Shown here one piece after another: positions 2,144-21,411 of a DNA stretch of 21,559 bases. The notes under the pieces are model-generated. The model worked only from the letters and a program-made list of their open reading frames with translations. It had not been told where the DNA came from and did no database searches. Position 1 is the first letter of the stretch. Every line of letters begins with the position of its first letter. A program made the position numbers and the translations under genes. The stretch comes from a virus (taxonomy: Duplodnaviria > Heunggongvirae > Uroviricota > Caudoviricetes), in IMG/VR virus record IMGVR_UViG_2711768076_000009, positions 1 through 21,559 of that record. One strand, written 5' to 3'.

Positions 2144-2842
2144 TTACTGCGAAAGTTTGTTAATGGAAAGGAAGCCGCCAAAGTTGCCGACGTTATTGCG
2201 AAACTTACAGCCACTCAGGCATTTGCTGCATTTATCCTTCGTGATATCGGACGTCGGCTGATCATATTCATCCGCGACCGCCGGACCATTATAACCGCAC
2301 TCATCACCGCGATAGGTCCAGGTGCAGGTGTTGGCCAGCATGATGCGCCCCGGAAAAACGGCACCATCCGTTTCCGTCGGTGTGGACAACACAAAGGAGG
2401 CACTGACCGCGCTCAGTTCGCTGCACTGCTCGATGCGCCAGCGGCTGATCACCTCCTGCTCCGGATCGGCGTCACTGTTTCCGTTGACGAAGTTCACCGC
2501 ATCCAGAAAACGGGCGTAAACCTTACGCCTGACCACCGTTCCGCCGACCAGACTCTGCAGGTCTTCCGCCATCCCGGTGACCATGCCGTGCAGGTTAGAG
2601 ACTTTCAGCGTTGGTCTTGCACTGGCTCCTTTGCCGTTCATCTCAAAGCCGCTTCCCTGAATAGGGTACGCCTGATACTGTCGCCCCTGCCAGGTGACCG
2701 GCTCACCTTTTTCGTTCTGCTCATTACAGAAAAAATAACGTTCTCCGCCGACCTCTGTCAGATCGACTTCCCAGAGCACGATCAGCGCGGATTGCTCCGT
2801 TTTAGTGCACTCATTGAGTGTTTCCTGCTGTATATCCTGCAT
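2144..2842 (-). CDS. L: Minor tail protein L
   Basis: 232-aa ORF MQDIQQETLNECTKTEQSALIVLWEVDLTEVGGERYFFCN... with C-terminal Cys cluster, lambda gpL-like; ATGA overlap with the M stop at 2842. Confidence 0.9.
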   Translation of the reverse strand: MQDIQQETLNECTKTEQSALIVLWEVDLTEVGGERYFFCNEQNEKGEPVTWQGRQYQAYPIQGSGFEMNGKGASARPTLKVSNLHGMVTGMAEDLQSLVGGTVVRRKVYARFLDAVNFVNGNSDADPEQEVISRWRIEQCSELSAVSASFVLSTPTETDGAVFPGRIMLANTCTWTYRGDECGYNGPAVADEYDQPTSDITKDKCSKCLSGCKFRNNVGNFGGFLSINKLSQ

Positions 2843-3183
2843 CAGTGAGTGACCTCTTCAAAGGTACAGTTAAAATCGGTATACATGGCATTATCCGAAA
2901 TGCTCCACTCCCTGCAGACAACCCGGACAGTCCTGTTGTGTTTTGGCGGACGCCACAAAAAAGCACGAATCCCGGCATGACGGGATAAAAAACTGTCCAG
3001 CGCGGCACGGGAATATTCATCTGTGACACGAAATACCGGTTTAAACGTTTTCAGATCCGCATTCAGACCACCAGCCCGTCTCTGTTCATATCCGTCACCA
3101 AACTTTACCGTAATAACTGATGGCTTTCGTGTCGTCTCCATCCCCTCACGGGGGATCCAGTTAAAAACTTCAGGCTCAGGCAC
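2842..3183 (-). CDS. Minor tail protein M (divergent from lambda M)
   Basis: ORF track gives 2842..3228 (128 aa), but that start lies inside the tape-measure gene. A GTG at 3183-3181 is preceded by GGAGGA at 8-nt spacing and gives about 113 aa, close to lambda M at about 109 aa by my recollection. Alternative ATG starts at 3198 or 3141. Conserved FGDGY motif. Confidence 0.65.
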   Translation of the reverse strand: MPEPEVFNWIPREGMETTRKPSVITVKFGDGYEQRRAGGLNADLKTFKPVFRVTDEYSRAALDSFLSRHAGIRAFLWRPPKHNRTVRVVCREWSISDNAMYTDFNCTFEEVTH

Positions 3184-6100
3184 TGTACAATCCTCCATCC
3201 CGACGCGATGACTGCATAATTGACACAACCCTGCTGTCGATCAGATCCACCAGTCCCCTGGCTGAGCGCGCATCTATCTCGCCATTGCTCCCTTGATTCT
3301 GAATGCTGATGTGATACACGGGAGAATAAACAAACCCCCCGCCACTATTCACATTGCCAATGGCTCTGACCCCAAGAGAGCCGTCCGCTGCCCGTGTCAG
3401 TGGCATGATAGCTTCAGGCCCGGCCTCGCCCATCAGCCCGGCACCTTTCGCAAAAGCAAAATACGTCGGTGTATCCACAATAGTGTTACTGTAAGCACTC
3501 AGATTTGCCGATGTGTAAACACCACCTTTTGCGTTTGCCACCGCCCCCGAAATCCATCCGCCGACCGTACCAAGCCACCCTCCGGCACCGGAGAGTGACT
3601 TCAGTCCGTTAACAATGGCCGCATTCATCAGAATTTTTGAAACTTCCTGGAGAATTGAACTCCCCCAGTTTCTCCAGTCCACAACATTTCCGGCCAGTGC
3701 ATCGGAAATATTTGATACCAGTCCGTCCATAGTGGAAACGACAGCATCTGCCGCCTGCGAAGCATAATCGGTGGCACTGTCTGCCCAGTTGGTCAGCCCC
3801 TCCTGGAGTCCTGCATTCCAGTTATTACGTAAAGCATCGGCCTTTGCATAATAATCCTGCTGATCGCTGAGACGCTCTTCCAGATATTTTTTATTCAGTT
3901 CTTTCTCCTGTTTCCACAGGGCTTCTTCAATTTCTCCGGCCTGATACTGTCTCAGCAGCTCGTTATTTTTCTGCTCAAACTCATGCCGGATACTCCACAT
4001 TTCCTGGAGTCGTTCACGCATCCGTGAGCCTTCACCATATCCCAGTAACTGCGCGTCGTTAGACGCCCGGGTACTGGCATTACTGTCCGCCAGGCTGCTT
4101 TCATACGCAGCAAGCTGCTCACGAATCTTTTTCTGGTCGATGAGTGCTGCATTCTGCAAAAGCGTTTTTTTCTGCGCTTCTGACAGGGTTGATAATTCGC
4201 CCTGACTGACCTGATATTTCATCTTAGCCAGTTCAGTATTCTGCCCTGCCAGTGCTATTTGTTCTTTTTGCTGTTTAATCAGCCGTTTATAAATATCTTC
4301 TGTTTTTTCCGCTTCGGTCTTTTTATGCGCTTTGGGTTTATTTGCCTGGTTATTTCGCCAGGCATCCAGTGAGTTATTGATATAATTCTGTCTGGCTGTC
4401 TGATACGCCTCTCCCACAAAGCCGAGATCATCCGCAGCATAACCCAAGCGGGCACGCTCACGGGCTTCCCCCTTCAGGCGGGACAGAGCCAGTTCGCGCT
4501 CGCTGTTATTCAGTGCAGTCTGCTGTTTATCATCCAGGGTTGCCTGTGGTAGCCGTAACGGTACATTCACCAGCCCCTGTCGCTGCTGAAGTAATTCATT
4601 ACCGAGCCCGAGAAGGCGATTAAACTCGGTATGCTGCCCATTCATGATCAACAGGGACTGATACGCTTTGTTTTGTTCCGCGGCCTGTTGACGGATCAAC
4701 GCCACCCGTCGCTCCTCCAGCCCGGCAAGCACATCCTGAATGGATTGCGCTTTGCCCTGCATTTGTGTGAGACGGGACTGTTCAACTGCCAGTTGATTTG
4801 TTGCTTCTGCAAGCCCTTCTGTGACAGTTTTTACCGACGTCATGTGGTTAATCATAAAACCGTTATCGGTTGTCCAGCCCGGGTTTGCCAGCACATACTG
4901 ATAGCCAGCAATTTTTTCCTGTAAGGATTTAATCTTACTTTTCTGCTCGTCAATTAACCTGTTTTGCTCATCAAGTGCCTGCCGCGTCTTTTCCTCATTA
5001 TCTGACGCTTCAGGAAGCGACATTGCCGACGTTTTCTGGCGAATTTCGTCGATTGTTGCGGCATACTGGCGTGCAGATTCTCTGGCCTGCTCCTGATTCT
5101 GATACATCGTGTACCAGGCCGTCGCCCCCAGCATGACGAGTCCCGGCACACCACCAACCAACCCCAGCGCACCACTTAACAGACGACTCCCCACTGACGT
5201 GACAGTATTCAGCGTTGTCTGTGCCGCTGTTCTGGCCGCAATATTACGGGTAAGTGACGCCTGGGCAGCTGTCAGCTTCGCTTCTGCTGCGGCCTGCCTT
5301 TCGGTACCGCGAGCAGCAACAACCGCCTGTTGCGCACGATAAACCGCCGCACGCGCCCTGGCGGTTGCTATCTGTGTCCCCCGAAGTTGCGCTTCAGCAA
5401 GAGCCACTTCGTTTCTGGCTGCAGTAATTAATCCGGCAGTTGCAGATCCAGCAGAAGACGCCATATTGCCAAAATATCGGGCTACCCCGACGGCAACCAG
5501 AGCACCGGCAGCGGTTGCCACGGTGTCAATATTGCCTGCAAGACCATTCAGCACCCCGGAGAGCGTCTTCGTCACTCCGCTTGCCTCGTTCGCACCACCA
5601 ACCCAGGCCATAAAGGCGTTTTCAACTTTGGTTGCAGAGGATGAAACCGTATCAGGCATTGCTGCATATTCATCACGCAACGCCCCAAGCTGACTAATCA
5701 GTGCAGGAACAACCTTATCGGCGGTCAACTTTCCGTTATCCGCCATGGCCTTCAGATCCTTACGGGCAACTCCCATTCCCGCAGCCAGAGCACGAATAAC
5801 ACGATCGCCGTTCTCATTCACCGAGTTAAACTCTTCACCGCGCAGCACTCCCTGCGCCAGAGCCTGACTGAACTGCGTGATCACCGAACTGGCTTCTGCT
5901 GTACTGGCACCGGATAATTTCAGGCCCGTGGAGATCGCCTCGGTGACTTTCAATACCTCCTCAGAACTGTAACCATACTCCCGCATGGAAGCTGCAGAGC
6001 GGGCAAAAAGGCTGGCGTTATCAGAAAAAGCCGTCCCCGTTCTCTGGCTGATCGCCATTAATTCACGCTGTGATGACTGAAAATCATCACTGGACTGTGA

Positions 6101-9430: not shown

Positions 9431-10648
9431 TTATTTGCCAGTGAGCGCCTTGATGGCTGCCACATCTTCCAGCACACAGTCAAAACGATGGAAAGCCAGA
9501 AATGCCACCTGATCAAACTCAGCATAACGCTCAACCAGACGTTTCAGTTCCATATAAGTAACGCGGCGAATGATAAAGCGGTTGAAATCCCCCAGGAAAA
9601 TGAATTTTTTTCCGATACCAATCCCGTCAATAGCCTGATCAATAACATAAGGGATCCCCAGCACAGTAGCCGGCGTACCGCCTGCAATATCCGGCAGCCA
9701 TAACGGGCGTTTCTGTCCATCCTCCATCTCTTCAATAGTCTGCAATGTGGCATCATTGAATGCCCAGCGGTATTTCGGCCCACCACGATATGCCGGATCA
9801 ATGGCATGTTTCAGGGCATTCATTTCTTTCCAGGTGAAAGCGGCAGAGGCTGCAGTCTGGATGGTTCCCGTCACCGACGCTGCCAGCCCTTTTGGCTGTA
9901 ACGGTGATCCCGTTCCGGTCCCCTGAACCAGATATTTTGCCTCTCCACGACCAATACGCTGGGCAATACGGTTTGCCAGATAAGATTCAATATCCACCCC
10001 ACTGTCCTGGAGCAGCTCATTGGACACACGAATTATTTTTGATGACAGCTTTTTAGCCCCCAGAATAGCGGTCCCGAACGTCACATCCTGTTCCGTTGCG
10101 GCTGTATTCTCCGCCAGCAGTTCGCCCTCTTCAGTCGTGCCATCAGACGTTGACCAGGTGATATCCTGCCCGGTTGATGTGGTCAGAAGTTGCGCCACAC
10201 TGGCAATCCCGCCATAAGCCTTCATGGTGTCAATGATTTTGTTACGCATCTGCGTGGGCACCGTATATCCGCCCTGAGAATCCGTTGTTACACTCTGAGC
10301 CCGCAGTTCACGCATCAGATTACGCTCTTCAGCATTCAGTTCTGCAAATCCGGCACGCAGAAAACGGTTAAATGCCGCAGCGCGCTTCTCTTCCACCGCC
10401 TTTTTCCCGTTCTCCGCCTCATTATTCTGGCGCTCTTCCGGCCCGGACTCATCCACATATGCCTGATCCTGACGGCGCAACTCTTCTTCACGGGCGATTT
10501 GCTCATCCAGCGCATCCAGCTCAGCTTTCGCCCTGTTCCACTCTGCCCGTTGCTCATCAGTCCATGCGTTATCACCAATTTTTTCATGCAGTGCACGCAT
10601 ATCCTTTGCAATGGTGTTTCGTTTTTGCTTCATCTCATGAAGTTTCAT
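9431..10648 (-). CDS. Major capsid protein, HK97 fold, with N-terminal delta (scaffold) domain
   Basis: 405-aa ORF; N-terminal ~100 aa is a charged, coiled-coil-like region (MKLHEMKQKRNTIAKDMRALHEKIG...EEELRRQDQ) typical of HK97-type delta domains; follows the prohead protease. Confidence 0.88.
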   Translation of the reverse strand: MKLHEMKQKRNTIAKDMRALHEKIGDNAWTDEQRAEWNRAKAELDALDEQIAREEELRRQDQAYVDESGPEERQNNEAENGKKAVEEKRAAAFNRFLRAGFAELNAEERNLMRELRAQSVTTDSQGGYTVPTQMRNKIIDTMKAYGGIASVAQLLTTSTGQDITWSTSDGTTEEGELLAENTAATEQDVTFGTAILGAKKLSSKIIRVSNELLQDSGVDIESYLANRIAQRIGRGEAKYLVQGTGTGSPLQPKGLAASVTGTIQTAASAAFTWKEMNALKHAIDPAYRGGPKYRWAFNDATLQTIEEMEDGQKRPLWLPDIAGGTPATVLGIPYVIDQAIDGIGIGKKFIFLGDFNRFIIRRVTYMELKRLVERYAEFDQVAFLAFHRFDCVLEDVAAIKALTGK

Positions 10649-10662
10649 CGTCAGTAGTATCC

Positions 10663-11262
10663 TTATGCATTAAGAAGGGTCAAAAGACGCTCACGCGCCA
10701 TTCGTTCGTTAACAGCTTTCTTCAGCGCACCACTCGCCCGCGCTTCCTGCCAGGCTTTCATTGAGCGGACACCAGAGTCTGCGTCCTGATAGGCCGGATA
10801 TGTCACCGGGCTGACGTCATACAGACGAGAAATGCGCGTGATTTCCCGGATAACAATCCCCTCGTCGTCTTCATACCAGCTCTCTCCGTCACGGGCGACA
10901 CGAAACGCGAACGAGGACTGATTAATGTCACCACGCAACATTGGAGACAGCACCAGGTCACAAATAGTCGGAGTATCCGGTGCAACAATGTCATAACGTA
11001 AACCGCGTTCATCCACCGACAATGACAACGTGCCGGCAGAACTTCGTCCGAGAATGAAATTAGGATCATGATTAAACAAGCCACGTACATCATCATTCAG
11101 TACATCATCAAAAGCCCCCGGCTTGATGATTTCACGAAATCCCCACAGAGGTTCTGAACGACTGTTAAATACCGAGCCATACCCCAGAATGTGGGTCGGG
11201 GCATTATCATATTGTTCCGCCCGCACCTCCCCGCTGTAACAGCGCGTTTCACGGTCATTCAT
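10663..11262 (-). CDS. Prohead protease (HK97 family)
   Basis: 199-aa ORF between portal and capsid genes, overlapping the portal stop; canonical position and size. Confidence 0.85.
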   Translation of the reverse strand: MNDRETRCYSGEVRAEQYDNAPTHILGYGSVFNSRSEPLWGFREIIKPGAFDDVLNDDVRGLFNHDPNFILGRSSAGTLSLSVDERGLRYDIVAPDTPTICDLVLSPMLRGDINQSSFAFRVARDGESWYEDDEGIVIREITRISRLYDVSPVTYPAYQDADSGVRSMKAWQEARASGALKKAVNERMARERLLTLLNA

Positions 11263-12481
11263 CGTTCTTTTCCTCTTTGCCTTTCGTATCTTTAAAGTTA
11301 TTCAACGGATTTGCTGCATTTACGCTGACCAGCATTTCATCCAGACCGTCAACCGGGTTCATATCCTCAAATGCCCTGGCTTCATTCCGACTCATCCAGC
11401 CATCTGTAATGGCAAAGTGATAGAACTGCGCACGCTCCTGTGGGGTCCCACGGAGCAACCCCGTGAGGTTGAAACGAACGTAATACCCGGCAGCCCGTTC
11501 TATACGGGTAAACAGGCGACGGTTAAGCTCCTGCTCCCAGTTCGCAACCCAGGGCATCATCGTGTAGCGAACAAACTGAATCGCCTGCTGCGTAATATTC
11601 GAAAATGTGGCTTTTTCCAGGTCATTAATCATGTGCGCCGGGACATTAAAAATCCCGGCAATCATCGACCGGTTCAGCTTGGTCATATCAATGATCTGAG
11701 CATCCACCGGAGAAACTGTCAGAGCGCGGTAATCCAGTTGCGCAGGCAGCAACATGGTTTTATTTTCCTGGCTGCGAAGCGCTGTCACCGCCCGCTGCCA
11801 CATATTTTTAAGCCTGCCCCAGCTTTGTTCGTTCAGTTCATTTTTCACAGAAATAATACCGGCAGGACGGGCATTACCGTTAAAAAAGGCGCTGGTATAC
11901 TGCTGGCCACTCATTCCCATACCAATGGTTTCAGCATGCTGCATGATCGGGCTCAGTCCCATTTTCTGATTGTTTCCCAGCGCCCTGATATGGATCATGT
12001 CGTCCGGACTTACCGCAAATGCACCCTCTTCGTTATACACCCCGTAAGTATGACGCCCACCGGTGTTAAGTAACGTGGTTTCCCATGGCATACAGCATTC
12101 AAGGCTGGTAACCTCTCCACGACGATTACGTTTTACCCACGTATAACCATTGCCCCACCCCAGCACATGACGCTGCTTCAGTTCCCGCCACTTATAGCTG
12201 GTCTGCCAGGCATTCGGTTCATCATGAACGAGCCAGAACAACGGATGATCGCGTGCAGGCTGAACATGCTCATTCGTTTTTCGCATCACATGCAGGGGCA
12301 TCTGAGCCACACTGGATGAAATAACATAAATACAGGCATAGACAGCAGCCAGCTTCATGGATGTTTCCGGACTGACATACACATCCCGGGCAAAAATATT
12401 ATCCGTCTCAGCGGCCTCTCCGGTTACCGGAACCGAGGGATTTTCCAGAGGCTCACTGCGAAACAGAGCATCAAGAAGCAT
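11255..12481 (-). CDS. Portal protein (HK97 family)
   Basis: 408-aa ORF downstream of large terminase; GAGGAG Shine-Dalgarno before the ATG; acidic C-terminus. Confidence 0.88.
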   Translation of the reverse strand: MLLDALFRSEPLENPSVPVTGEAAETDNIFARDVYVSPETSMKLAAVYACIYVISSSVAQMPLHVMRKTNEHVQPARDHPLFWLVHDEPNAWQTSYKWRELKQRHVLGWGNGYTWVKRNRRGEVTSLECCMPWETTLLNTGGRHTYGVYNEEGAFAVSPDDMIHIRALGNNQKMGLSPIMQHAETIGMGMSGQQYTSAFFNGNARPAGIISVKNELNEQSWGRLKNMWQRAVTALRSQENKTMLLPAQLDYRALTVSPVDAQIIDMTKLNRSMIAGIFNVPAHMINDLEKATFSNITQQAIQFVRYTMMPWVANWEQELNRRLFTRIERAAGYYVRFNLTGLLRGTPQERAQFYHFAITDGWMSRNEARAFEDMNPVDGLDEMLVSVNAANPLNNFKDTKGKEEKNDE

Positions 12482-12611
12482 GTTTTCTCCTCATGGACAC
12501 CACCAGTGCATAAAGCAGCAACAAACAGCCCGACAGCATCAGAGACGCTGGCAGACCTGCATACAGATAAACGCCAGCAGTGAGCAAACCGAAACCGATC
12601 AGCCCGGTCAT
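12471..12611 (-). CDS. Small hydrophobic ORF (46 aa; 53 aa from GTG at 12632) between large terminase and portal
   Basis: Minus-strand ORF MTGLIGFGLLTAGVYLYAGLPASLMLSGCLLLLYALVVSMRRKHAS, below the ORF-track size cutoff. Two predicted transmembrane stretches and a basic tail; stop overlaps the portal start; weak Shine-Dalgarno. Confidence 0.3.
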   Translation of the reverse strand: MTGLIGFGLLTAGVYLYAGLPASLMLSGCLLLLYALVVSMRRKHAS

Positions 12612-12628
12612 ATCAGTAATAAGCTGTT

Positions 12629-14386
12629 TCACAGAATTAACAGGTCCTCATCAGGATCAAGCGTGGACAGAAAGTCATTCACGCCCCCGCCATTTACCAG
12701 AAAGCGGCTCATGGCCGTAAAAAGCGCAACAGGGCCGTCGATTTTGGCTTCAGGCGTGGATTTATTCGGGAAGATGTTGTCGTTTTTGTCCGGTTTTACC
12801 GTAACGTTAGACATCATCCAGTTCATGACCGGATGATTGCTGTGATGGAAACGCCCGGCATAAACCAGTGATTCCGTTTCCTTCATGGCCTCTGACAGAT
12901 TGCGGACCGTCTGCGGAACCTCCACCAGCGGTATCCCTTCTTCAGCCAGTGCCAGGCTGAACTGCATTGCGCTCCACGGGTCAAATCCCAGTTCCCTGAG
13001 GTTTTCACCGCCAATCCATTCCAGTAAGTCACTTTTTATCTGAGCATGATCGATAACATCACCATCCGTCAGGATGAGCTTATCCATCTCCGCCCACTTC
13101 CGGTAAAGTTCTGCCTGCTGCCGCGAGCATCGCTCCAGCCGTCCTTCCGGAAGCCAGAATTTAAAATCAGCATGAACATGTCCGTTATCGGTTCGCCAGA
13201 GTTTTGCCGCCGCACAGATATCAATCTTATGAGCAAGGTCTACGCCGACCCACATGGGATATGTTTTCAGCTCATGTTGTGGAGCAATGTATTCGCACTT
13301 CTCCCACTTAATCATATCCATCCAGGCAGATTCGGCAGTGACCCACACATTCATGTGTTTAGTAAAAAAATTCACCCGCGCAGAGACCTGCTCCTTCGCT
13401 TTTTTCGCCAGACGACGCAGATCATCCCAGCGTTTACAGATGCCCAGGCCAGGATTCGCTTTCTGCCAGACCGTTTCATCAAACGGATCATCTCCCTCAT
13501 CGAGCGTGTAAATGATCGCAAAGTAGGAGTCGTCTTTTACCGCGCCCTCCACGTCGCTGTTATAGCCTCGCAATACCTTAATGGCGTAATCGCGCTGCTC
13601 GTAGCAAATCCCTTCCTTGTTAAAGCCAGCCGTGGTGATGCCAAATAACAGAGACTGCAGACGGGCACCGGTTGCCGTTTCCAGAACGTCCCACACGTCA
13701 CGGGTTTTATGAGCATGCAGCTCATCAATAATGGCGCAGTGGATGTTCAGACCGTCCAGGTTGTTTGCATCCGAGGAAAGCGGTTCAAATTTTGATGCGC
13801 TCTGCTCCTGGTAAATCGCCAGCTTGTTGAAATCAAACAACCGCCCGAGTGTCGACCGGGCTTTTCTGACCATATTTTTGGCGTCTTCAAACACAATTCT
13901 GGCCTGGTCACGCGTGGTTGCGGCTGAATACACCTCAGCCCCGCCTTCACCATCTGCCCCCGTCATATACAGACCGATACCCGATGACAGGGTTGATTTT
14001 GCGTTTTTACGGGCAACTTCGTTGTATGCTGTCCGGAACCGGCGCACCATCACCGGGCGTCCACTGCCATCGCTGCGCATGACAACTTCCCCGGTTTCTT
14101 CATTCACCAGCGGAATGACAAAACCAAAAATATTAATGAGGATAAACACATGCCAGTCCATCAACTCAATGGGCTGACCTGCCAGCGCCCCTTTCACATG
14201 GGGTACAAATTTGTAGAAATTAAGGATGTGCTGTGCACGAGGTTCACTGAAATAAATCCCCCGCTCTTCGCCGTACTTCAGATCATCAAGAAAACGCTGG
14301 CAGGCCAGACGGACAAATTCGCCAGCAACAATTTCTCCTGCAACAACACGTTCGGCGTAGCGGATCCCGTCAGCCACTTTTGCCAT
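12629..14386 (-). CDS. Terminase large subunit
   Basis: 585-aa ORF immediately downstream of the small terminase with an ATGA-type overlap; canonical position and size. Confidence 0.9.
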   Translation of the reverse strand: MAKVADGIRYAERVVAGEIVAGEFVRLACQRFLDDLKYGEERGIYFSEPRAQHILNFYKFVPHVKGALAGQPIELMDWHVFILINIFGFVIPLVNEETGEVVMRSDGSGRPVMVRRFRTAYNEVARKNAKSTLSSGIGLYMTGADGEGGAEVYSAATTRDQARIVFEDAKNMVRKARSTLGRLFDFNKLAIYQEQSASKFEPLSSDANNLDGLNIHCAIIDELHAHKTRDVWDVLETATGARLQSLLFGITTAGFNKEGICYEQRDYAIKVLRGYNSDVEGAVKDDSYFAIIYTLDEGDDPFDETVWQKANPGLGICKRWDDLRRLAKKAKEQVSARVNFFTKHMNVWVTAESAWMDMIKWEKCEYIAPQHELKTYPMWVGVDLAHKIDICAAAKLWRTDNGHVHADFKFWLPEGRLERCSRQQAELYRKWAEMDKLILTDGDVIDHAQIKSDLLEWIGGENLRELGFDPWSAMQFSLALAEEGIPLVEVPQTVRNLSEAMKETESLVYAGRFHHSNHPVMNWMMSNVTVKPDKNDNIFPNKSTPEAKIDGPVALFTAMSRFLVNGGGVNDFLSTLDPDEDLLIL

Positions 14387-14868
14387 CAGTCTCTCGCTTT
14401 TAAAAGCTCTGCCAGCGGATCAACATCATCCGGTCCGGCGGTATTTACTTTCGCCCGGCTTGCCGGTGACATACCAAACTCTGCAAGCATCGCCCGAATC
14501 CGCTTCCAGGCATCAGCCTTCATCGCAGCAGCCGGGTGTGCCTTGATCAGCACATCGCCATTCTGCGTTTCCGTGCGGTAGGTATAACCCTCAACATCGA
14601 GTATTTCGCAGTGATGCCGGTATTCGGTGTAGGCTTCCACCAGTAACTCGAGCGCACGTGCATCGAGCTGAGAAATGATCCCTTCCGCATTCAGCTCTTC
14701 CGCCATTCGCCTGAACCAGTACTTCCCCTGCGCCCCTAAATGTTGCGGAATTTTAGGGAGACCTTTTTCATCCTTTTTAGCGGTTTTTTTGGAGTCTTTA
14801 ACTGGCCGCTTTGAGGGGTTACCTCGTATCAAATGCAGGCGTGGCGGGGTTTTCGGGGGTCCAGACAT
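14386..14868 (-). CDS. Terminase small subunit (P27 family)
   Basis: 160-aa ORF with a basic, Lys/Pro-rich N-terminus (MSGPPKTPPRLHLIRGNPSKRPVKDSKKTAKK...); lies between the HNH gene and the large terminase. Confidence 0.8.
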   Translation of the reverse strand: MSGPPKTPPRLHLIRGNPSKRPVKDSKKTAKKDEKGLPKIPQHLGAQGKYWFRRMAEELNAEGIISQLDARALELLVEAYTEYRHHCEILDVEGYTYRTETQNGDVLIKAHPAAAMKADAWKRIRAMLAEFGMSPASRAKVNTAGPDDVDPLAELLKARD

Positions 14869-15015: not shown

Positions 15016-15366
15016 TCAATTGATGCGTTCGCGCGCTGTTTTTGCTTTATGACAGGGCCAGCACAGACTCTGCAGGTTACTGTCTGCATCCGTGCCACCA
15101 TGAGCTTTCGGAATGATGTGGTCCACAGTTCTGGCTTCAACGGCTCTCCCATTGCGCAGGCAGTTCTGACACAGATGATTATCACGCTTCAGTATGCGCG
15201 CACGTATGGCATCCCATTTCGAGCCATAGCCACGCTGGTGGCGGCTCAGTCCGCGTTGATGCTGTACCCATCCTTCGCCACGATGTTTATCGCAGTAACC
15301 AGAACTGTCTGTGGTTGTACCTGCACATCCACGTTTACGGCAGGCTCGTGGGATTAGTGCTGGCAT
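15016..15366 (-). CDS. HNH endonuclease (terminase-associated)
   Basis: 116-aa ORF with Cys pairs (CRKRGC, CDKH, CQNC, CWPCH) and an HIIPKAHGG...N HNH motif; directly upstream of cos and terminase. Confidence 0.85.
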   Translation of the reverse strand: MPALIPRACRKRGCAGTTTDSSGYCDKHRGEGWVQHQRGLSRHQRGYGSKWDAIRARILKRDNHLCQNCLRNGRAVEARTVDHIIPKAHGGTDADSNLQSLCWPCHKAKTARERIN

Positions 15367-15762
15367 GTTTCGCCCTTATATAAATCAAAAGTGACCTGCA
15401 TTGAGTATCTCCATGAAATAGATTTGCCGCTGATATGAGCCAGATCAATAGACTTCATGAGCTAACGGGTGTAGATATTACTTTTTACTTCAGAGGGTTA
15501 ACTCATGGATATTAAGGATAAAATCAATACCATTTTGTTATGTGACATTGCCATCCACCTAGGTATCGAAACTGATATTGATCCACAGCTTGTAAAATAT
15601 GCTGTGTCATCTGGTAATGATTGGGTTATGAAGGCCGAATATTCACATTTGGATGTTGATGAACCAAGTAAAGAAGATCGTGATTTTGTTACTGCTGTCT
15701 TGAATATGTACCGCGGACTTTCCAATGCTTTCAGGAAACTTAGTGATGACGAGCAAAAAGAA

Positions 15763-15766
15763 TTAG
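15763..15766. repeat. IS5 target site duplication TTAG (left copy)
   Basis: TTAG immediately outside the left inverted repeat; fits the known IS5 target preference YTAR. Confidence 0.8.
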
Positions 15767-16962
<1,196 letters not shown>

Positions 16963-17931: not shown

Positions 17932-18546
17932 TCACACCAGTGCGGCTTTAGCTTTGGCGTAACGTTCACGACGTTCTTTAATGCCGTTCTGCCCGCCATT
18001 AATAATCTGCGTGACGCGCTCCAGCTCTCCCGAGTAAAGGAGACAACCACGTAACGTGAAAAACCAAGCAGCAGAACGGGCAGCATGCTTCTCCTGCGTC
18101 AGCAACTCTGGTGTACCGATTAGATCAAGCTTCAGCGCCGTACCGCATTTGGCGTAGTTCTCCCGGCCGGTGATTTGAAGCAGGCCACGACCACGATATT
18201 TCCAGCCATCCCCTTGGCTGTTATTCCCCAGGCGGTTACCGTAAACCAAATTGGCTATTTGCTGCTGGTGGGCTATCTGCCTACCATCGATACGTCCCAA
18301 CATTTCACACTGATACGGAGTCAGGCGTTTACCAAAGGTTTTCTTCAGCCCCTCTACCGAATAGTTAAAGCTCTCCACCAGCGAGGTAAAACCGGCCGAT
18401 TCGTGCCCAACTTGTGCAATGAACATGGCCTGATCGTTAACTGCTGTGATTCCAAACTCTTTCAATGCCGCATCAATGTGCGGAAACCAGCGCGCAGAAA
18501 GCCCGGTGCTGATACCAGCCGCCTGCTGAAATTGTGATTGGTTCAT
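17932..18546 (-). CDS. Endolysin, glycoside hydrolase family 19 (chitinase-like lysozyme)
   Basis: 204-aa ORF with the GH19 signature region WKYRGRGLLQITGRENY; TAATG overlap with the upstream membrane-protein gene. Confidence 0.8.
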   Translation of the reverse strand: MNQSQFQQAAGISTGLSARWFPHIDAALKEFGITAVNDQAMFIAQVGHESAGFTSLVESFNYSVEGLKKTFGKRLTPYQCEMLGRIDGRQIAHQQQIANLVYGNRLGNNSQGDGWKYRGRGLLQITGRENYAKCGTALKLDLIGTPELLTQEKHAARSAAWFFTLRGCLLYSGELERVTQIINGGQNGIKERRERYAKAKAALV

Positions 18547-18827
18547 TAGCGCCTCAGATGATCAACCAGACGTGCCACGTTGCCTCTGACGGCTACCAGC
18601 ACAGAGAGGAAAATAATGTTGGCCCCGATAGTGCCCCATGATGAGTACGGGTAAATACCGCACAGATACGCCAGCGGAACAGCACTGTACATGACCGTAA
18701 GCAGCCACGCTAAACGAGATATCCACGGCCGATGTCGCGAGTCGCCGCGACGGTAAAACATCAGGGTTAACACTACCCCAGCACAAAGCAATGCATTAAA
18801 AGTTGCCGATAGGTCATTTTGTACCAC
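18546..18827 (-). CDS. Holin-like membrane protein (3 predicted TM, basic C-terminus)
   Basis: 93-aa ORF with three hydrophobic segments and the C-terminal RGNVARLVDHLRR; immediately upstream of the endolysin. Confidence 0.6.
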   Translation of the reverse strand: MVQNDLSATFNALLCAGVVLTLMFYRRGDSRHRPWISRLAWLLTVMYSAVPLAYLCGIYPYSSWGTIGANIIFLSVLVAVRGNVARLVDHLRR

Positions 18828-19200
18828 CTGAACCTCCCCGGCGCGTTATGAGCGCCACCAGCGAACCGATATCCTGGTTATTCAGAAACGTCAGGATTTT
18901 AACGGCTAAAGCAGAGACGATTACGGCACCAATAGCATCCAGAGGTTTATCACTGTATCCGGTCAAATTCGCCAGTTTGGAACCAACTAACCCAGAACAC
19001 AAAACCCCAGCGATATATGACACTATGAAATATGCCAGTCGGCGCGTTGCCGTCAGATCTGCAGTTGTCGCTATGTAGAAAACAGCTCCTGCAAATGCGC
19101 CAAATACAACACCATAATCCGTACCTGTAAACAGGCCATAAATACTGACTCCCGTTAGAACTCCTCCGGCTAACCCAGTACCGGAAATAGGATCGGACAT
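18814..19200 (-). CDS. Holin/antiholin-like membrane protein
   Basis: 128-aa Gly/Ala-rich multi-TM ORF with a charged C-terminus; first gene of the lysis cassette; AGAGGTGG Shine-Dalgarno. Confidence 0.55.
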   Translation of the reverse strand: MSDPISGTGLAGGVLTGVSIYGLFTGTDYGVVFGAFAGAVFYIATTADLTATRRLAYFIVSYIAGVLCSGLVGSKLANLTGYSDKPLDAIGAVIVSALAVKILTFLNNQDIGSLVALITRRGGSGGTK

Positions 19201-19366: not shown

Positions 19367-20263
19367 TTATTTTGTTGGTTTAGGGCCCAATGTAAATTTT
19401 GATTTAGTTCCTTTTCTTAACCGTTTAACATCAGGGAAAATATCCACCAACCGTTCAGTACACTTAATCAAAGATTCAGTACATAGCAACATACCCATTA
19501 TTATATATCCAAAATCGAACTTGTTAAAACAACCAGTCCCTCTCCCATTCGGTTCCATTTTGTAATATGATATAGGGAGTATGTGTGTGTAATGCGATAG
19601 AAAATCAAACATCACTTTAAACGATTTTGGGTCTTTCCCTAGTTTAATCAATAAATCGTCTCTATTAGGAATTGTTAAAGCCTTGCCTGACAAGCAACGT
19701 TTCCTAGTACCACTATCAAGTGATAAAAAAGCAGGGTTTTTATTGAGTCTTTCCGCAATTATACTCTGTTGCTCATTATAAAACTCTAATGCTTCTGTAT
19801 TATCACTTTGCGTGAATAATTCTATCCTTTTTACACAATCATTCATGTGCATAACATTTAGCTTTGCTGACCAAGCCTCTTCTGAATCTGGTGCTTCAGA
19901 CAAATACATAAACAGAAGTTCAGCTTCAAGGATCGCCCTGACATGAGATGCTATAGAAGCAAAATCCCAGAAATCGTAATCTCGCTTAGCCCATCTGGAC
20001 TTAGGAACATTAGAAATCATAATCGAAGCATGAATGCAAATTCGCGCAAATATATATGTTGACCAACCTTGATAAGCCTCAGCCATTCGCACACCTACTC
20101 CCTGACTTATCGCATTGGCTTCACAAACAGCTTTATCAAACTCCCTAAGAACATGGTGGAAGTCATCAATTGTAAAATCATTACGTTCGAGTGGATTCTC
20201 TAAGTTTTCTGCCTTATCTGATTTCATGTTGCAATGGTCCAAAAAGTAATTAAACGCATGCAT
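19367..20263 (-). CDS. Hypothetical protein, AT-rich cargo (moron) gene between tR' and the lysis cassette
   Basis: 298-aa ORF MHAFNYFLDHCNMKSDKAENLENP...; AT-rich relative to the flanking phage backbone by eye; no signal peptide, TM segment or motif I can name; ATG lies 9 nt downstream of the tR'-like terminator. Confidence 0.7.
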   Translation of the reverse strand: MHAFNYFLDHCNMKSDKAENLENPLERNDFTIDDFHHVLREFDKAVCEANAISQGVGVRMAEAYQGWSTYIFARICIHASIMISNVPKSRWAKRDYDFWDFASIASHVRAILEAELLFMYLSEAPDSEEAWSAKLNVMHMNDCVKRIELFTQSDNTEALEFYNEQQSIIAERLNKNPAFLSLDSGTRKRCLSGKALTIPNRDDLLIKLGKDPKSFKVMFDFLSHYTHILPISYYKMEPNGRGTGCFNKFDFGYIIMGMLLCTESLIKCTERLVDIFPDVKRLRKGTKSKFTLGPKPTK

Positions 20264-20380: not shown

Positions 20381-21049
20381 TCATCGTGAAAAGATCGCTT
20401 TTTGTTGCGATCTCTTTTTCACGGTGGAAATCAAGGATTCTGTATCGAGATTCTTAAAAATGTCGCACATCTCACGCCAGTAGTTCGCATAATTATGGCT
20501 CCAGTTGTCTGGCTTAACTCCACACAGTCTGGCAAGCTCCTGTCGCTGGTAGACCTCACGCCCGGTAACCCATCCCCTGACATCCTGTGCCGCCAGCCAT
20601 ATCAACTTCTTCACACGCTCCAGCGTTTTTCCTGCAATTTTTCTGGTACCAGACTGGGTTTTAAATTCATTCCACACCCACTGCGTTATCACGATCTGAT
20701 GCTCCCAGCAAATGTTTCCGCCGTAACACCACAACAACCAGGCTTTATGATGTTCTTCAAGAGACAGAACAGCCCGCCGCCACGATGATGTCGAAAACTC
20801 AACCGGACTGACCAGAGGAATTGACGTCCCCTTCGCCAGCGATTGTTTCCCCGGGATTGGTGGATTATCCCGCGTAATCATTTTTCCGGTCACTTCATCT
20901 CGGTACCGGATTTTTTTACGCCTGTAACGCCCTGTATCGAACATGGCATTCTCCTGCCAGGCTTCAAGCTGACCTTTTGTTGCCCCACTCAAATCAGCGG
21001 TGGCGATAATGAGCTGCTCACGCACAAACTGTAAATACTGGTTATTCAT
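20381..21049 (-). CDS. Putative late-gene antiterminator (Q-position protein; family not recognised)
   Basis: About 222 aa from the ATG at 21049, which overlaps the rusA stop as ATGA (ORF track starts at GTG 21055). Sits between rusA and pR'/tR'. Not similar to lambda Q as I recall it, so the function is inferred from position only. Confidence 0.45.
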   Translation of the reverse strand: MNNQYLQFVREQLIIATADLSGATKGQLEAWQENAMFDTGRYRRKKIRYRDEVTGKMITRDNPPIPGKQSLAKGTSIPLVSPVEFSTSSWRRAVLSLEEHHKAWLLWCYGGNICWEHQIVITQWVWNEFKTQSGTRKIAGKTLERVKKLIWLAAQDVRGWVTGREVYQRQELARLCGVKPDNWSHNYANYWREMCDIFKNLDTESLISTVKKRSQQKAIFSR

Positions 21050-21411
21050 GCGCACTCCAGTTCTGTGATTTTTATCCCCAGCCGCCCACCAGGAACGAGC
21101 TGACCGCGCACAATATTGATTTCATCAAACTGCTCGTCGTCTATGAGAAGCCCCGCATGCGTCAGTGCATCCAGCGGTGCTTTCAGGATATTGTCCAGGT
21201 CCCGACGGCGCTTATCCGGCGGCTCTGCAGTAATTTTTATTGCCAGTCTTCCGGACAGGTTTAATTTCAGCCGCTGCTGGCGAACAATTAGCGCCACATC
21301 ACGGCGATAACGCTTTCCGGCCTCCGAGATGAAATACGTATTGCCATGACGTCGCCAGTAGGTATTCACCGTCGGCGGGTAAGGCAAAACAAATTCTATG
21401 CGTTCAGTCAT
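21046..21411 (-). CDS. rusA: Holliday junction resolvase RusA
   Basis: 121-aa ORF; PYPPTVNTYWR and DKRRRDLDNILKAPLDALTHAGLL motifs match E. coli RusA (PWPPSNNRYY, DRRRRDLDNLQKAAFDALT) from memory. Confidence 0.85.
   Translation of the reverse strand: MTERIEFVLPYPPTVNTYWRRHGNTYFISEAGKRYRRDVALIVRQQRLKLNLSGRLAIKITAEPPDKRRRDLDNILKAPLDALTHAGLLIDDEQFDEINIVRGQLVPGGRLGIKITELECA

Follow-up and report, generated by a model that had tools for sequence, protein, structure and literature searches.

What occupies the short interval between the large terminase subunit gene (TerL) and the portal gene in an HK97-type head module, and with which of its two neighbours does it belong? We examined this question in a 21,559-nucleotide stretch of DNA from a virus of the Caudoviricetes (IMG/VR record IMGVR_UViG_2711768076_000009, positions 1 to 21,559; hereafter the window), which is a prophage in Escherichia coli closely related to phage Evi and carries a head module of the HK97/SfV type. 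TerL (12629..14386) and the portal gene (11255..12481), both on the minus strand, leave 147 bp between them (12482-12628), and the listing of open reading frames (ORFs) with their translations places across this gap a minus-strand ORF at 12471..12632, comprising 53 codons and a stop, with the product (M)KQLITDMTGLIGFGLLTAGVYLYAGLPASLMLSGCLLLLYALVVSMRRKHAS. An earlier sequence-only reading of the window had singled out the same peptide as an unannotated and unusual membrane protein, or else a chance ORF, and its description of the strand, the gap, the overlap with the TerL stop and the stop lying inside the portal start agrees throughout with the coordinates. On the comparisons given below, the small ORF is almost certainly a real gene translated in this frame, and it travels with the portal gene.

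Coding evidence and family membership

The length of the ORF alone is not significant because 9% of shuffled versions of its 162 nt stay open in frame, so that the case for a gene rests on comparison. Annotated homologues with 45-62% identity lie at the same junction in the Morganella phage IME1369_02, the Edwardsiella phage EPP-1, the Klebsiella phage vB_VIPKPNMC05 and the Salmonella phage F1055, and the frame is intact at the TerL-portal junction in 36 proteobacterial and phage loci. When loci were fetched through the portal protein instead of the ORF, and counted if they included the upstream terminase, a hydrophobic same-frame ORF of 47-60 aa occupied the junction in 31 of 31 proteobacterial loci, which span Enterobacterales, Pasteurellaceae, Halomonadaceae, Marinobacter, Glaciecola, Pseudomonas and Alcaligenaceae with portal identities of 58-85%. 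Among 80 viral contigs found through the peptide motif, all have the ORF between TerL and portal and an NTGA overlap at its start, and 79 have an 11-nt overlap with the portal gene.

Mean pairwise differences at the first, second and third codon positions were 0.46, 0.32 and 0.63, respectively, the third position being the most variable. The ratio of non-synonymous to synonymous substitution rates (dN/dS), a noisy estimate that rests on only 44 codons, was 0.08-0.47 in nine of the ten least-diverged pairs and 0.70 in the tenth, with a median of 0.32 over the 371 pairs with finite dS. Two of the checks proposed in the sequence-only reading, conservation of the frame at the same junction in relatives and synonymous versus non-synonymous change (dN/dS about 0.2-0.3), came out in favour of a gene. 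With a family profile, 134 clusters (90% identity) and 228 representatives (50% identity) were found, almost always with a length of 45-70 aa, and across 246 members the most conserved residues are D7 (92%), G13 (98%), G20 (99%), G26 (97%), L31 (90%) and G35 (99%), with an aromatic residue at position 22 in ~90%.

Tblastn searches of the phage collection with distant family members gave mostly no matches, probably owing to the low-complexity filter, and one lead, the Synechococcus phage Ssp-JY37 (PP438427; locus L178, 2854-3042). This genome has the same layout of TerL, small gene, portal, protease and capsid genes, and its peptide closely resembles those of Halomonadaceae prophage loci such as that of Vreelandella olivaria (L032), an unexpected likeness given the host assignment.

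Where translation starts was judged differently in the sequence-only reading, which preferred a 46-aa form beginning at an internal ATG, codon 8 of the ORF (12609..12611, minus strand). That preference is probably wrong. The upstream GTG (12632-12630) shares bases with the TerL stop TGA (12631-12629) in a GTGA overlap (12629..12632), relatives carry ATGA at this overlap, and their N-terminus keeps the pattern MKxLIxD, with a lysine or arginine at position 2 in 78%. An ATG in relatives at the position of the window GTG, together with the conservation of residues 1-7, makes the 53-aa form the probable product; against the internal ATG speak the family-wide conservation of the seven residues ahead of it and the lack of a preceding Shine-Dalgarno (SD) sequence. 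A 46-aa version has also been deposited elsewhere, labelled 'putative membrane protein'.

By profile comparison, the small protein is a member of PHROG 7105, a family without assigned function: the alignment covers the full profile (E 9.4e-20, residues 1-52 with positions 1-52 of 52), PHROG 7105 is likewise the best match for distant members from other taxa, and weaker matches of the window protein are to PHROG 502 ('membrane protein', E 1.3e-6) and PHROG 4810. We also used an operational definition ('portal-leader'), comprising a length of 45-70 aa, the pattern D-x2-G-x2-G-x6-G-[VIL]-Y-L-x-[FY]-G…G, a basic tail, and a stop that abuts or overlaps a PF04860 portal gene at its start. The window protein has D7, G10, G13, G20, VYLYAG, G35 and the 11-nt portal overlap, and the same combination was found in 79 of the 80 viral loci and in all six distant members sampled. 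Searches with the small protein against Pfam (E <= 1), NCBIfam and PADLOC gave nothing meaningful, and a Foldseek search of its AlphaFold2 model against viral structures returned only uncharacterised hairpins (E > 0.6).

Without a single sequence difference, the protein is RefSeq WP_000811487.1 (UniProt A0A0G3JUA5), a 'hypothetical protein' whose exact 53-aa sequence is present on at least 1000 contigs; in strain EBJ003, WP_000811487.1 is encoded by 162 nt with the same overlaps. Matches to the 501 bp around the ORF, at 98.6-99.6%, occur in nine deposited Escherichia phages, namely Evi, PhiR49_2 and several vB_EcoS-…R phages, and the locus is also present in 654 of 5426 complete E. coli genomes. 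In the listed records, each match that spans the junction has a 'hypothetical protein' between 'terminase large subunit' and 'portal protein'. The description of the ORF as unannotated was therefore true only of the ORF track then available, since GenBank and RefSeq annotate WP_000811487.1 in Evi, in related phages and in E. coli genomes. Nor is a membrane peptide unusual at this place, being a fixed component of this head-module lineage, with a sister family (PHROG 502, YmfR) in the same position in another. The existence of the gene is thus already catalogued and is no discovery here; the gene is widespread but uncharacterised.

AlphaFold2 with the family alignment models the protein as a helical hairpin with helices at residues 2-25 and 27-48 (predicted local distance difference test score, pLDDT, 87). 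Residues 8-46 form an uninterrupted apolar stretch, uncharged save for turn position 24, which is a lysine or arginine in 26% of members. The first predicted membrane helix (residues 8-26; 12555..12611, minus strand) is Gly/Ala/Thr-rich and moderately hydrophobic, carries G13 and G20, and has the turn motif G-[VIL]-Y-L-x-[FY]-G; the second (residues 28-46; 12495..12551) carries L31 and G35 and is strongly hydrophobic and transmembrane-like (Kyte-Doolittle up to 2.2, Hessa sum about -0.6). A stripe of small residues runs along each helix (G13/G20; G35/A42/A46), a pattern that points to helices packed closely inside one subunit or across subunits. The hairpin is followed by a basic C-terminal tail, MRRKHAS (12474..12494), predicted to be cytoplasmic, with a charge of +3, and the charges at the N-terminus are K2 and D7. 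Conservation of the tail is confounded, because its codons hold the portal SD and the last three overlap the conserved portal N-terminus MLLD.

These predictions make a membrane hairpin very probable, likely in the inner membrane, its two ends cytoplasmic and hardly any of it exposed in the periplasm. The strongly hydrophobic peptide with a basic tail described in the sequence-only reading stands; of its two membrane helices, the second is clear and the hairpin model includes both, but the first is marginal, so that two are likely and not certain.

Co-inheritance with the portal gene

Identity of the small protein to the window copy across 106 loci, a set selected through portal or peptide, correlated with portal identity at a Spearman coefficient of 0.71 and with TerL identity at 0.07. 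In 100 of these loci TerL is only ~34% identical to that of the window, while the portal is 58-89% identical and the same small gene is present.

A module swap within E. coli prophages locates the boundary. The TerL body of the window (12688..14386) is exchangeable: over residues 1-567 it has a 99% identical counterpart in an E. coli prophage (L180), where a YmfR-type small gene and a portal of only 28% identity come next. The DNA homology between the two (93%, window 15366-12687) ends 58 nt before the TerL stop. The remaining tail, the last ~19 codons of TerL (12629..12687, minus strand; …DFLSTLDPDEDLLIL and the stop), co-segregates with the type of small gene and portal, independent of the TerL body: tails of the type '…DFLS(S/T)LDPD(D/E)(D/E)LL(I/L)L' go with the 7105-type small gene and tails of the type '…LS.H.ES.G(I/V)RSL' with the YmfR-type gene, and each is found on either TerL body (TerL 3' ends of L002-L039, L171, L179, L180 and L182). 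On this comparison, the window TerL is chimeric, with a body of the e14/L180 type and a tail of the SfV type. In lambda gpA the C-terminus is known to dock to the portal, and an exchangeable TerL tail matching the portal type fits the idea of such a docking element.

The portal remains the downstream partner when the terminase is displaced. Two loci (L175 and L176) have five unrelated genes (2.3 kb) between TerL and the small gene; the 11-nt portal overlap is retained, and the overlapped portal is a different PF04860 protein of 512 aa. In six of six distant family members with fetched contigs, the overlapping downstream gene likewise encodes a PF04860 portal. Judged from these gene comparisons, the co-inherited unit is the TerL tail (~18 residues), the small gene and the portal, without the terminase body. 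The candidate explanation that the small gene belongs to the terminase was rejected on the module swap, the TerL correlation and the tail-type pattern, and the membrane peptide, which the sequence-only reading had placed in the packaging module, sits on the portal side of the junction according to the swap and the identity correlations. Papers on SPP1 and Microbacterium phages report that the terminase-portal junction tolerates insertions.

Translation signals lie at both ends of the small gene. Its TGA (12473-12471) falls 11 nt inside the portal gene, giving the overlap ATGCTTCTTGA (12471..12481, minus strand). The portal SD, GAGGAG (12487..12492), lies 5 nt before the portal ATG and inside small-gene codons 47-49, the tail codons thereby doubling as portal ribosome-binding site and start; its duplex energy is -9.4 kcal/mol in the window and -7 to -12 in most relatives. 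Because the small gene's own SD is weak or absent in most loci and its start overlaps or abuts the TerL stop, translation probably passes from TerL by termination-reinitiation, with the GTGA/ATGA overlap as the probable site. The coupling suggested in the sequence-only reading is thus consistent with the geometry at both ends. No promoter-like or terminator-like sites were found on the minus strand between 12300 and 13300, and the GC content of the small gene (0.494) is close to that of its neighbours (0.503-0.512); the want of a promoter or terminator of its own and the shared composition point to late-only expression.

In phage SfV (NC_003444; locus L004), an intact but unannotated homologue (MKSLIADVIGLAGFGLLTCGVYLQFGMAPALILSGALLLVGALAMARRGTRAA) lies at 2289-2450. 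The SfV portal gene orf3 is annotated at 2392-3666, and a GTG at 2440 in the same frame corresponds to the portal start in relatives, so the SfV portal is probably annotated 16 codons too long. The small gene thus has a value for annotation in showing the true portal start, and ORFs of such size at the TerL-portal junction deserve to be kept, not filtered.

A second family occupies the same position in another head lineage. The E. coli K-12 gene ymfR (b1150, e14 prophage) encodes a 60-aa 'IPR020297 domain-containing protein' that matches PHROG 502 at E 2.5e-28. The gene has the terminase remnant ymfN on one side and the PF04860 portal remnant beeE on the other, and its stop overlaps the portal start; intact prophages of this type have the order TerS (small terminase subunit)-TerL-small gene-portal-S78 protease-capsid. 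YmfR resembles the window protein in its two hydrophobic helices, its glycine richness, its tight turn and the basic segment after helix 2. By contrast, it has W/IYPPAG at the turn and lacks the N-terminal MKxLIxD, its gene follows TerL after an 11-nt gap rather than a 4-nt overlap, and its partner portal is only 28% identical to that of the window. Reciprocal profile matches are weak (window protein to phrog_502, E 1.3e-6; YmfR to phrog_7105, E 0.022), and an hhalign comparison of the two family alignments gave a probability of 20% and E 1e-3 with both helices aligned in register, a signal that transmembrane composition could have caused. YmfR is only a secondary match of the window ORF, which shares its position and architecture but is not a YmfR/PHROG 502 member, and from the sequences YmfR appears to be a distant homologue or an analogue of the 7105-type protein. 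PDB chains searched with the 7105-type and YmfR profiles gave no match, the nearest being non-significant hits to the transmembrane helices of glycophorin A, for YmfR.

A candidate role in portal localisation and its alternatives

The pattern of inheritance makes a function tied to the portal reasonably probable. More tentatively, and by analogy, we propose a family of models in which the small protein is a late, translationally coupled inner-membrane factor for portal localisation or nucleation. Ribosomes ending TerL would reinitiate on the small gene, the peptide would insert into the inner membrane with its N and C ends in the cytoplasm, and portal translation would then start at the SD embedded in the last codons of the small gene. 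The peptide would anchor the emerging portal, or else the polysome that produces it, at the inner membrane, so that portal-ring formation and prohead initiation would be localised there. In a contact-free variant, co-translational insertion of the peptide would itself bring the portal-making polysome to the membrane, which would explain the conserved strict adjacency in cis. Membrane nucleation as the specific mechanism we regard as doubtful.

The closest parallel is in T4, where the gp20 portal dodecamer forms at the inner membrane with the help of a phage chaperone, gp40, and of host YidC, and initiates the prohead (PMC9958956, PMC4493910). The likeness to gp40 would be a functional analogy only, drawn from position, predicted membrane location and co-inheritance with the portal, and no sequence relationship was detected or is expected. 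T4 gp40 is larger than the small protein and is not known to be encoded next to gene 20, and to our knowledge no membrane step is known for HK97-type heads. In PRD1, P20 and P22 are integral membrane proteins of ~40-50 aa at the packaging vertex that span the internal lipid membrane of the virus. They resemble the small protein in being small membrane proteins tied to the portal or packaging vertex; however, PRD1 has an internal membrane and tailed phages have none, and homology is not expected. A positional analogue is lambda gpW, a soluble head-completion protein of the virion (68 aa), whose gene lies between the terminase gene A and the portal gene B, whereas the small protein is almost wholly apolar.

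Several points weigh against a membrane factor for the portal. The gene is absent from the junction in HK97 and in Firmicutes loci (PF04860 portals, identity 34-38%), which implies that portal assembly in this fold family is generally independent of it. Only ~7 N-terminal and ~7 C-terminal residues are predicted to be exposed in the cytoplasm, leaving little surface for contact with the portal, and the first helix is marginal as a membrane span (best 19-residue Kyte-Doolittle window 1.55, Hessa about +2.3). The tight portal linkage could also be hitch-hiking between a co-adapted TerL tail and portal. In addition, a literature search found no study of the PHROG 7105-type gene family or of YmfR: to judge by title or abstract, none of the papers mentioning ymfR appears to study it, and the excerpts matching 'small membrane protein' contained generic holin sentences only.

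In two of the Firmicutes loci, the portal is directly preceded by a small hydrophobic ORF unrelated to the family (L086, 2473-2592, 39 aa; L074, 2661-2921, 86 aa), which could be a coincidence or a hint of recurring small membrane genes at this position.

Among the alternatives, the one that survives best is that the gene is an expression device, a spacer whose translation passes ribosomes on from TerL to the portal gene and sets a low portal dose, with a peptide of little or no importance. The near-invariant geometry of the junction in the viral loci (5' NTGA and the 11-nt 3' overlap in 79 of 80), the weak SD of the small gene together with a portal SD set in its last codons, and the adjacency to the portal that persists with TerL 2.3 kb away are all what such a spacer would produce. 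The peptide itself, however, is under purifying selection at the protein level (dN/dS ~0.2-0.3), with near-invariant glycine and aspartate residues over 246 sequences of very different GC content, and HK97 couples TerL straight to the portal without any spacer. A regulated SD hairpin at the portal start was considered and dropped, as the predicted mRNA fold around the SD and start is no more stable than that of shuffled controls (z = -0.77), a result that also counts against the spacer. Overall, we consider a spacer with a dispensable peptide unlikely.

Less likely again is a host-directed membrane effector, a 'moron' acting in superinfection exclusion, host takeover or anti-defence and merely linked to the portal gene. 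Small inner-membrane proteins encoded in late operons can be exclusion factors, as is HK97 gp15; PHROG 502 carries the label 'membrane protein; moron, auxiliary metabolic gene and host takeover'; and very little of the protein is predicted to lie outside the bilayer, all of which would suit such an effector. Yet the gene lacks the usual features of a moron, having no promoter or terminator of its own, a GC content like that of its neighbours and a distribution that is not sporadic. It is present in every sampled member of the portal lineage, with which it co-diverges, and PADLOC gave no match.

The predicted fold recalls a third possibility, a holin- or pinholin-like lysis timer with two helices, both termini cytoplasmic, a weakly hydrophobic first helix resembling a signal-anchor-release domain and a basic C-terminus. 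Class II holins and pinholins, such as S21 68 of phage 21, are small proteins with two helices, a weakly hydrophobic Gly/Ala-rich helix 1 and a charged C-terminus, and the small protein shares their size, predicted topology, Gly/Ala/Thr-rich helix 1 and charged C-terminal tail. At 53 aa it is nevertheless shorter than typical class II holins, is encoded in the head operon instead of a lysis cassette, and matches no holin family in Pfam or PHROGs at E <= 1. The window has a complete lysis cassette (~17.5-19.2 kb, with PF16931 and PF05449 holins, endolysin and Rz/Rz1), about 5 kb from the ORF, which overlaps the portal gene, and the idea that the ORF supplies a missing holin was rejected for this completeness. 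In mosaic relatives the gene tracks the portal and not the lysis genes, and early depolarisation of the membrane would oppose ATP-dependent DNA packaging, making a lysis timer a poor candidate. Lastly, a chance ORF or a mis-annotation without product, which the sequence-only reading had allowed and for which only the shortness of the ORF and the shuffles that stay open would speak, is hardly credible against a frame, length, motif and position kept from Enterobacterales to Pasteurellaceae, Halomonadaceae, Pseudomonas and Alcaligenaceae, with a coding codon-position signature and purifying selection.

Returning to a membrane factor acting on the portal, such a protein, if the proposal is true, would place the initiation or tethering of portal rings or proheads at the cytoplasmic membrane, a T4-like step through an unrecognised factor of 50-60 aa in a phage group whose heads are believed to form free in the cytoplasm. 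In HK97-type phages it is poorly understood how one portal ring is produced and placed at one vertex, and a portal-cognate factor would offer a testable handle. What the comparison adds, and what we did not find in the literature searched, is a gene for a predicted two-helix micro-protein that is joined by overlap to the portal gene and travels with the portal and the TerL tail through module swaps, together with a second family, including YmfR, that follows the same portal-coupled rule in another head lineage. That a large clade of HK97-type phages of Proteobacteria carries a dedicated, portal-cognate inner-membrane micro-protein, of at least two families (PHROG 7105 and YmfR/PHROG 502), is a broader claim that the sequences hint at and that we hold with considerable doubt.

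Other features of the window

The small gene lies on the minus strand in a late operon of typical HK97-type composition. Upstream are genes for an HNH endonuclease (15016-15366), TerS (14386-14868, PF05119) and TerL (PF03354 and PF20441); downstream, the portal gene (PF04860) is followed by genes for an S78 prohead protease (10663-11262) and an HK97-fold capsid protein (9431-10648), and then by lambda-like tail genes.

An insertion sequence (IS) interrupts the order between the lysis cassette, which ends at ~17492, and the HNH and TerS genes. It encodes an IS5-family transposase (15914-16894, minus strand, 326 aa, PF01609 and PF05598, phrog_3598), and Evi has no insertion there. Judged by its position inside the late operon, the insertion may be polar on the head genes, and this prophage copy may be defective. 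A 144-aa GTG-start ORF (15498-15932, minus strand), for which neither Pfam nor PHROGs gave a match, shares 19 nt with the 3' end of the transposase gene and may be a gene fragment or an artefact made by the insertion.

The lysis region has tandem holin genes (18546-19200, minus strand), for a PF16931 Phage_holin_8 protein of 128 aa and a PF05449 Phage_holin_3_7 protein of 93 aa, which precede the endolysin gene and the nested Rz/Rz1 spanin genes and may form a holin/antiholin pair. Between the holin genes and a Q-like antiterminator gene (20381-21055) lies a 298-aa ORF (19367-20263, minus strand) whose DUF5677 match is weak (E 3e-5) and falls short of the Pfam cut-off, and which has no match in PHROGs; in lambdoid phages, the position between Q and the holin genes is usual for cargo such as stx.

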